Assembly (NCBI RefSeq): GCF_055900595.2
Contig: NZ_CM148325.1
Length of the DNA: 64,000 nucleotides
Reading direction: 5' to 3' (one strand)
Below the pieces are notes generated by a model that was not told the DNA's origin, searched no databases, and saw nothing but the letters and a program-made list of their open reading frames with translations. How positions within the stretch are numbered: the stretch's first letter is position 1; each line of letters starts with the position of its first letter. Shown in pieces: positions 17,410-17,643 of this stretch. A program made the translations under genes and the position numbers.

Positions 17410-17441
17410 AATTCAGTACCTATAGTGAGCAAAATTAGAAC

Positions 17442-17464
17442 AAACATAGCAACGGCTATGTTTT
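17442..17464. promoter_or_regulatory. MntR-type operator palindrome upstream of sitA
   Basis: AAACATAGCAACGGCTATGTTTT is a near-perfect inverted repeat matching the MntR box form AAACATAGC-N-GCTATGTTT, ~35 bp upstream of the sitA start. Confidence 0.55.
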
Positions 17465-17487
17465 ATAGCATAATCTATACAAATGCA

Positions 17488-17506
17488 AATGGTTATCATT
17501 AATGTA
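17488..17506. promoter_or_regulatory. Fur-box-like site in the sit promoter
   Basis: Reverse complement ATTAATGATAACCATTT matches about 13 of 17 positions of the Fur consensus; weaker than the iucA box. Confidence 0.3.
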
Positions 17507-17643
17507 TTTGTTTGTAAGTGATGAGATGCTCTTCCTCTCCTTCACGACAGCCTTCAATTACGCCATGATGGATAAACTGTAACCATAAAAGGAGAAATGT
17601 ACTGAACACATCCTGCCCTGTTAAGAGAGGTGCACTGTGATGG

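Follow-up and report, generated by a model that had tools for sequence, protein, structure and literature searches.

The window, i.e., the whole 64,000-nucleotide stretch of DNA that was analyzed, represents Escherichia coli chromosomal DNA, whose positions 17300-17700 are 100% identical to many RefSeq chromosomes in which the gene located there is annotated as sitA. We found on its minus strand four consecutive ORFs, which are designated sitA-D in the RefSeq annotation of identical DNA; their NCBIfam matches are to a metal ABC substrate-binding protein, to two permeases and to the Mn/Fe ABC ATPase equivalog PRK15056 (587 bits). The interval 17410-17520 is situated 5' of sitA and is read on the minus strand, so that positions upstream of sitA have higher window coordinates; in sense orientation, the 5' region of the gene reads ...cacttacaaacaaatacATTAATGATAACCATTTGCatttgtatagattatgctataAAACATAGCCGTTGCTATGTTTgttctaattttgctcactataggtactgaattATG. 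The operon and the elements recognized upstream of it are:

13939-17409, minus strand: sitABCD operon, four consecutive ORFs (the regulated genes)
16495-17409, minus strand: sitA (ATG at 17409), ORF for a metal ABC substrate-binding protein (NCBIfam match)
15668-16495, minus strand: sitB, ORF of sitABCD
14814-15671, minus strand: sitC, ORF of sitABCD
13939-14817, minus strand: sitD, ORF of sitABCD
17442-17463, no strand assigned: main MntR box (predicted operator), AAACATAGC-AACG-GCTATGTTT; 9-4-9 inverted repeat without a mismatch, situated 33-54 nt before the ATG of sitA
17461-17482, no strand assigned: degenerate second MntR-like box, sense TTGTATAGA-TTAT-GCTATAAAA, its center 19 bp farther upstream than that of the main box; overlaps the putative -10
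17462-17467, minus strand: putative -10 hexamer TATAAA, kept in all six E. coli sit promoter sequences compared
17484-17489, minus strand: putative -35 hexamer TTTGCA, with a 16-nt spacer to the -10, overlapping the proximal end of the Fur box
17485-17503, minus strand: predicted Fur box, reading ATTAATGATAACCATTTGC in sense orientation, situated 76-94 nt before the ATG of sitA
17502-17513, no strand assigned: junction; resemblance to every other sit allele breaks off between 17501 and 17502 (megablast and allele alignment)
17514-17643, plus strand: IS110-family 5' non-coding end(s), followed by a frameshifted transposase at about 17644-18790

The main MntR box is a palindrome whose 9-nt arms are 100% complementary around a 4-nt spacer (plus-strand reading of the window). 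The pattern AAACATAGC-N4-GCTATGTTT, searched with up to three mismatches, has a single occurrence in the window, compared with 0.02 expected from shuffles. On a symmetrised matrix built from four sites of strain K-12 (mntH, mntS and two at mntP) the box scores 29.2 bits, while the next best position in the 64 kb reaches 8.8 bits; none of 5000 dinucleotide shuffles of 17410-17560 attained its score, the largest value among them being 19.1 bits, and a matrix without mntH still gives the box 26.5 bits. Its arms are identical at 18/18 positions to the K-12 mntH palindrome, which shows zero mismatches to the pattern and lies 13-34 nt before the mntH ATG (gene sense AAACATAGCAAAGGCTATGTTT). Upstream of K-12 mntP there are two sites of this pattern with three mismatches each, and the K-12 mntS promoter carries a related site, TAATATAGCCTGTGCTATATCT. 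We take these mntH, mntS and mntP palindromes to be MntR operators, in part following Patzer and Hantke (2001) as well as Waters et al. (2011). Reviews describe the mntH promoter as possessing separate MntR, Fur and OxyR sites, and mntS and mntP as being under MntR control. A full-text literature search for the literal half-site together with MntR returned no match. The ATAGC/GCTAT core of the enterobacterial MntR operator is present in the main box of sitA, and the cognate regulator gene, mntR, is found in 5421 of 5426 complete E. coli genomes, outside the 64-kb window in the present case. The box is positioned upstream of a manganese homeostasis gene, where it would overlap the -10 region and the start site. 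These comparisons support the main box as a predicted MntR operator that is homologous to characterized sites, non-random and conserved.

The Fur box is the best match to this motif in the interval, agreeing with the consensus GATAATGATAATCATTATC at 14/19 positions. It was scored with a matrix derived from 12 other CFT073 motifs under ChIP-seq peaks (PMC7157518 Table S5B), from which sitA was left out. The resulting 16.9 bits fall just below the range of the training sites (17.8-27.7 bits), but make it the third best distinct site in the window (approximately 128,000 scored positions), and about 0.2% of promoter-region shuffles reach this score (p about 0.002). On the same matrix the Fur box of K-12 mntH, which is reported in reviews to mediate Fur repression, obtains the close value of 17.7 bits. 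In the uropathogenic (UPEC) strain CFT073, the motif GCTAATGATAATCATTTTC at sitA lies under a Fur ChIP-seq peak with a height of 526 (PMC7157518). We determined that this motif maps 77-95 nt upstream of the CFT073 ATG, in register with the Fur box of the window, the two being identical at 15/19 positions. In the CFT073 fur mutant, expression of sitB, sitC and sitD is increased 20-, 16- and 8-fold, respectively (PMC7157518 supplementary tables), and an independent study combining ChIP-exo with expression data includes sitABCD among the Fur-regulated genes of two pathogenic E. coli strains.

The top three distinct Fur sites of the window each lie directly upstream of a metal-uptake gene, i.e., an IucA-like ORF, a TonB-dependent receptor gene and sitA, which serves as an internal control. 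The other two sites, together with genes mentioned below, are:

1979-1997: the strongest Fur box, GATAATGATAATCATTATT, 18/19, 28.2 bits, at the start of an ORF for an IucA/IucC-type siderophore synthetase (1977-3764, plus strand)
48354-48372, minus strand: Fur box GATAATGAGAATGATTTGC, 15/19, 18.3 bits, 50 nt upstream of the TonB-dependent receptor gene
48422-50509, plus strand: TonB-dependent receptor gene, 695 aa, NCBIfam PRK13486 (1539 bits)
20771-21295, plus strand: sodC-type superoxide dismutase gene (RefSeq annotation of identical DNA)

The strongest of these sites presumably belongs to the aerobactin iucA/shiF promoter. A divergent 397-aa ORF (711-1904, minus strand) lies beside it, and the Fur motif of CFT073 iucA reads GATAATGAGAATCATTATT. 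The receptor gene is probably another Fur-repressed iron-uptake gene. A further match to the Fur consensus, also at 14/19 positions (GATAATCATGATGACCATC, 21224-21242), is situated inside the sodC-type ORF, scores 10.8 bits on the matrix and is probably due to chance. An additional inverted repeat around the Fur box of sitA (17479-17487/17503-17511) was dismissed as a chance occurrence, since 72% of shuffles contain an equivalent.

Both operators had been proposed in a sequence-only reading of this DNA, which described a near-perfect MntR-type palindrome and a weaker Fur-like site in the 150 bp upstream of sitA and suggested matrix scoring as a check. The palindrome is indeed present as quoted and is actually perfect, and the Fur-like site likewise stands; the matrix scores given above bear out the two assignments.

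Apart from the main box, we recognized a degenerate MntR-like box that scores 2.3 bits and ranks 27th in the window. Its position gains meaning from the comparison with other species: in 16 of the 22 Enterobacterales loci examined, two TAGC-N4-GCTA cores are spaced exactly 19 bp apart, directly downstream of a Fur-like box ending in CATTT, and the second box of the window sits exactly where the second intact core of the other Enterobacterales is found. In E. coli sit the upstream core is decayed, except for the IncF plasmid allele (L006), which retains an intact core at this position (7.4 bits). Tandem cores upstream of sitA relatives were recorded at loci L008-L025, L028, L035 and L037. The arrangement of boxes 19 bp apart, one of them decayed in E. 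coli, may point to cooperative binding of MntR. We know of no description of such cooperative binding at sit.

To follow the conservation of the region, we aligned six E. coli sit promoter sequences: that of the window, that of CFT073, those of two further chromosomal contexts, and one each from an IncF plasmid and a linear plasmid record. Between the ATG and TAATGATAA of the Fur box these sequences are near-identical, and upstream of that part they diverge; the main MntR box is kept in all six with at most one change per arm. In turn, the upstream regions of 80 sitA relatives were searched, of which 22 belong to Enterobacterales and 58 to alpha-, beta- and other gamma-proteobacteria. The best match to the MntR pattern amounts to 11-18 of 18 positions in the enterobacterial loci and to no more than 12 of 18 in the others, and the TAGC-N4-GCTA core was detected upstream of sitA in 22/22 of the former and 0/58 of the latter. 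Many sitA loci of rhizobia, Bartonella and Brucella (within L026-L087) possess GCAAATGCAAATCATTTGC-type palindromes instead, and none of these has the MntR core; such palindromes are consistent with being Mur boxes. The MntR site tracks the lineages that use MntR.

The operon itself belongs to the accessory genome: sit is present in 1685 of 5426 complete E. coli genomes and K-12 is devoid of it. It occupies at least four contexts, namely next to uspF-ompN, in the CFT073-type island, on IncF plasmids and, as here, downstream of iucD-iutA between IS fragments, where it adjoins the aerobactin genes. This distribution agrees well with the earlier description of sit as a horizontally acquired transporter. 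The operators most likely came with the operon from another enterobacterium using the same regulators and would not have evolved after the transfer, because the core motif is present in every enterobacterial sitA relative examined and in no non-enterobacterial one. As for the surroundings, ISL3 and IS1 fragments are located between sitD and iutA, and the sit operon is thus enclosed by IS debris on either side. Beyond the IS110 fragment, the stretch 18790-21295 includes IS200/IS605 and IS256 transposase fragments followed by the sodC-type gene (RefSeq annotation of identical DNA).

The putative core promoter falls between and under the two operators. The -35 and -10 hexamers were assigned from the allele alignment, in DNA that is AT-rich; at the same place, CFT073 shows TTTTCA-17-TATAAA. 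The TATAAA sequence at 17462-17467 is formed at the junction of the main and the degenerate MntR boxes. A promoter scan that accepts only -10 hexamers ending in T detected no promoter in the stretch between the operators. Elsewhere, within the IS110 end, a promoter-like TTAACA-17-TACATT is directed toward sitA (17596-17624, minus strand); it agrees with the consensus at only 9/12 positions, and chance alone would yield about 1.2 matches of this quality in the region.

We propose that RNA polymerase would recognize the TTTGCA and TATAAA hexamers on the minus strand and start transcription at approximately 17453-17457. When manganese is sufficient, a Mn-bound MntR dimer would occupy 17442-17463 and cover the edge of the -10 and the start site, with a possible additional contribution to binding from the degenerate box over the -10. 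Under iron sufficiency, Fe-bound Fur would occupy 17485-17503 and cover the -35. Since the core promoter lies between and under the operators, either repressor could block the polymerase, and the transporter would be made only when both metals are scarce. Very probably, the region thus constitutes the sitABCD promoter-operator under dual metal repression by MntR and Fur; the parts of this scheme that we infer are the exact hexamers and the start site, the occupancy of the operators in this strain, and how strongly iron would repress through the weakened Fur box. The manganese- and iron-responsive control by host regulators that was suggested from the sequence is thereby supported, as both sites are tied to characterized operators and mntR is nearly universal in E. 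coli (5421/5426 genomes).

Two other explanations of the motifs seem to have little to recommend them. The palindrome could act at the RNA level, as a 5'-leader hairpin followed by a U-rich run (a terminator, an attenuator or a stability element), and indeed a terminator scan flags the minus strand with a 9-bp stem followed by GTTCTAATTT, while the hairpin appears in the minimum-energy fold. Yet, this fold does not stand out (z = -0.88; equalled by 30 of 200 shuffles), the stem includes only 3 G-C pairs, the tail is interrupted, and the putative start site lies inside the palindrome, so that the full hairpin may not be transcribed. Moreover, it is the sequence, and not mere pairing, that recurs at the unrelated mntH promoter, and the TAGC/GCTA core is invariant across genera, which is what a protein-binding site would show. 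An Rfam search of the leader gave no credible family match, either to the Mn riboswitch or to another leader RNA, and one review states that sitABCD is without a riboswitch-like leader. On account of the z-score, the Rfam result and the conserved core we rejected the RNA hairpin/terminator reading as highly improbable. Even less credit can be given to the idea that both motifs are products of chance in AT-rich intergenic DNA, the probability of which we consider negligible. The region is AT-rich and weaker inverted repeats are expected in it by chance, but the shuffles reproduced the MntR score in 0/5000 and the Fur score in 0.2% of cases, both motifs are kept across alleles and genera, and the Fur site matches a ChIP-supported one. 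The chance explanation is effectively refuted already.

The alternative that deserves closer consideration concerns the allele carried by the window, in which only the MntR operator might work and the Fur box would be a decayed remnant, iron then having little direct effect on sit apart from Fe cross-talk with MntR. This allele is uncommon: among 5426 complete E. coli genomes only 53, which come from poultry, swine and human isolates, have its upstream sequence. For about 1640 genomes, alignment to the window by megablast ends at query position 202-203, i.e., at window position 17501-17502, which places the two distal bases of the Fur box in the junction. The IS110-family end begins 12 bp beyond this breakpoint at the distal edge of the box. 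It is a mosaic, since 17514-17591 corresponds to the sequence immediately preceding an intact IS110 transposase gene in strain A28, while the sequence from 17592 onward matches a different IS110 relative (pOkiPb01678_1). The transposase is split into the ORFs 17644-17982 and 17903-18790; the NCBIfam family name for the element is 'RNA-guided transposase', and its non-coding end may encode a guide RNA. A search for the native sit upstream DNA elsewhere in the 64-kb window was negative.

With its native upstream DNA entirely missing and similarity to other alleles ending within it, the Fur box of the window is the weakest of the six E. coli sit promoters (16.9 vs. 20.4-26.0 bits in the other five). 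It differs from that of CFT073 at positions 1, 2, 12 and 18, and three of the four differences (1, 12 and 18) cost about 3 bits each. The fall from 26 to 17 bits is accounted for by two point changes together with the loss of a single base at the junction, the MntR operator still being perfect. These features speak for a loss of Fur control, but the box continues to hold the third place among approximately 128,000 scored positions, its score is close to that of the Fur box of K-12 mntH, through which Fur repression is reported, and its central TAATGATAAC-CATT core is intact. We therefore regard operation of the MntR site alone as quite improbable, and dual repression by MntR and Fur as the preferred reading for this allele as well. 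A milder effect, in which the weaker Fur box would reduce iron repression in this allele, seems unlikely too, if slightly less so. It is conceivable, although still doubtful, that the allele could partly uncouple sit from iron repression with manganese control kept; if true, this would represent a lineage-specific rewiring of a virulence-associated transporter.

A close parallel to the dual arrangement is found at K-12 mntH, where the MntR half-sites (AAACATAGC/GCTATGTTT, with a 4-nt spacer) are identical to those of sitA and where a Fur box of similar strength (17.7 vs. 16.9 bits) is likewise placed upstream of the MntR box, near the start codon of a manganese importer, which gives the same layout. 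Dual repression of the mntH promoter by Fe-Fur and Mn-MntR is attributed by citing papers to Patzer and Hantke (2001). The two loci differ in that mntH is a core gene for an NRAMP transporter, while sit encodes an accessory ABC importer; in the spacer sequence, which in mntH has the opposite orientation relative to the gene; and in the gap between the Fur and MntR boxes, which is 18 nt in mntH and 21 nt in sit. They also differ with respect to OxyR. The best match to the pattern ATAGnTnnnAnCTAT-N7-ATAGnTnnnAnCTAT at sit is 11/20 in both the window and CFT073, which equals the background (354 window positions score 11), whereas the K-12 mntH control has a plausible site with 13/20.

The sitABCD operon of SPI-1 in Salmonella Typhimurium is of the same type and under the same two regulators. 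As described in papers citing Ikeda et al. (2005, J Bacteriol 187:912), mutating its putative MntR and Fur sites relieved repression. In Salmonella as well as in Shigella, sitABCD is reported to be repressed by manganese through MntR and by iron through Fur, and a degree of cross-talk is described. Salmonella sit is also reported to have an OxyR element, in contrast to the window, where none is evident. Neither the 80 closest loci nor the 120 closest proteins included Salmonella SitA, and relatives from Enterobacter, Pantoea, Lelliottia, Citrobacter and others are closer; E. coli sit is thus not a close copy of Salmonella sit. Within E. coli, CFT073 carries an allele of the same locus, with an identical MntR box and a Fur motif at nearly the same distance from the ATG (77-95 vs. 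76-94 nt; 15/19 identical). Its Fur box is stronger (26.0 bits, 17/19), and its native upstream sequence is retained; in the window, IS110-family DNA takes over 12 bp past the Fur box. The CFT073 sitA gene (L088, 715-1651) is given as a frameshifted pseudogene in RefSeq, yet it has the strongest Fur box of the six and a large Fur ChIP peak.

The rhizobial sitABCD operons provide an instructive counterpart. They encode a homologous, manganese-repressed transporter (64-76% SitA identity), which is reported to be under the Fur-like manganese regulator Mur (PMC5575495; Diaz-Mireles 2004, 2005). They are without the MntR-type palindrome (0/58 non-enterobacterial loci have the core) and combine the same function with a different regulator.

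The dual MntR/Fur arrangement at sitABCD is already known and holds nothing surprising to the specialist, as the enterobacterial manganese importers MntH and SitABCD are textbook cases of repression by both Fur and MntR. Genome-wide mapping has already shown occupancy of the E. coli sitA promoter by Fur (CFT073; PMC7157518). The value of the present analysis is that the exact coordinates and strand of the elements are fixed and that the earlier call holds quantitatively; beyond correct annotation, its significance is small. What it does add is the description of an allele with a truncated Fur box, the weakest of those compared, at an IS-associated junction, which may be relevant to the expression of sit in the poultry, swine and human isolates that carry it.
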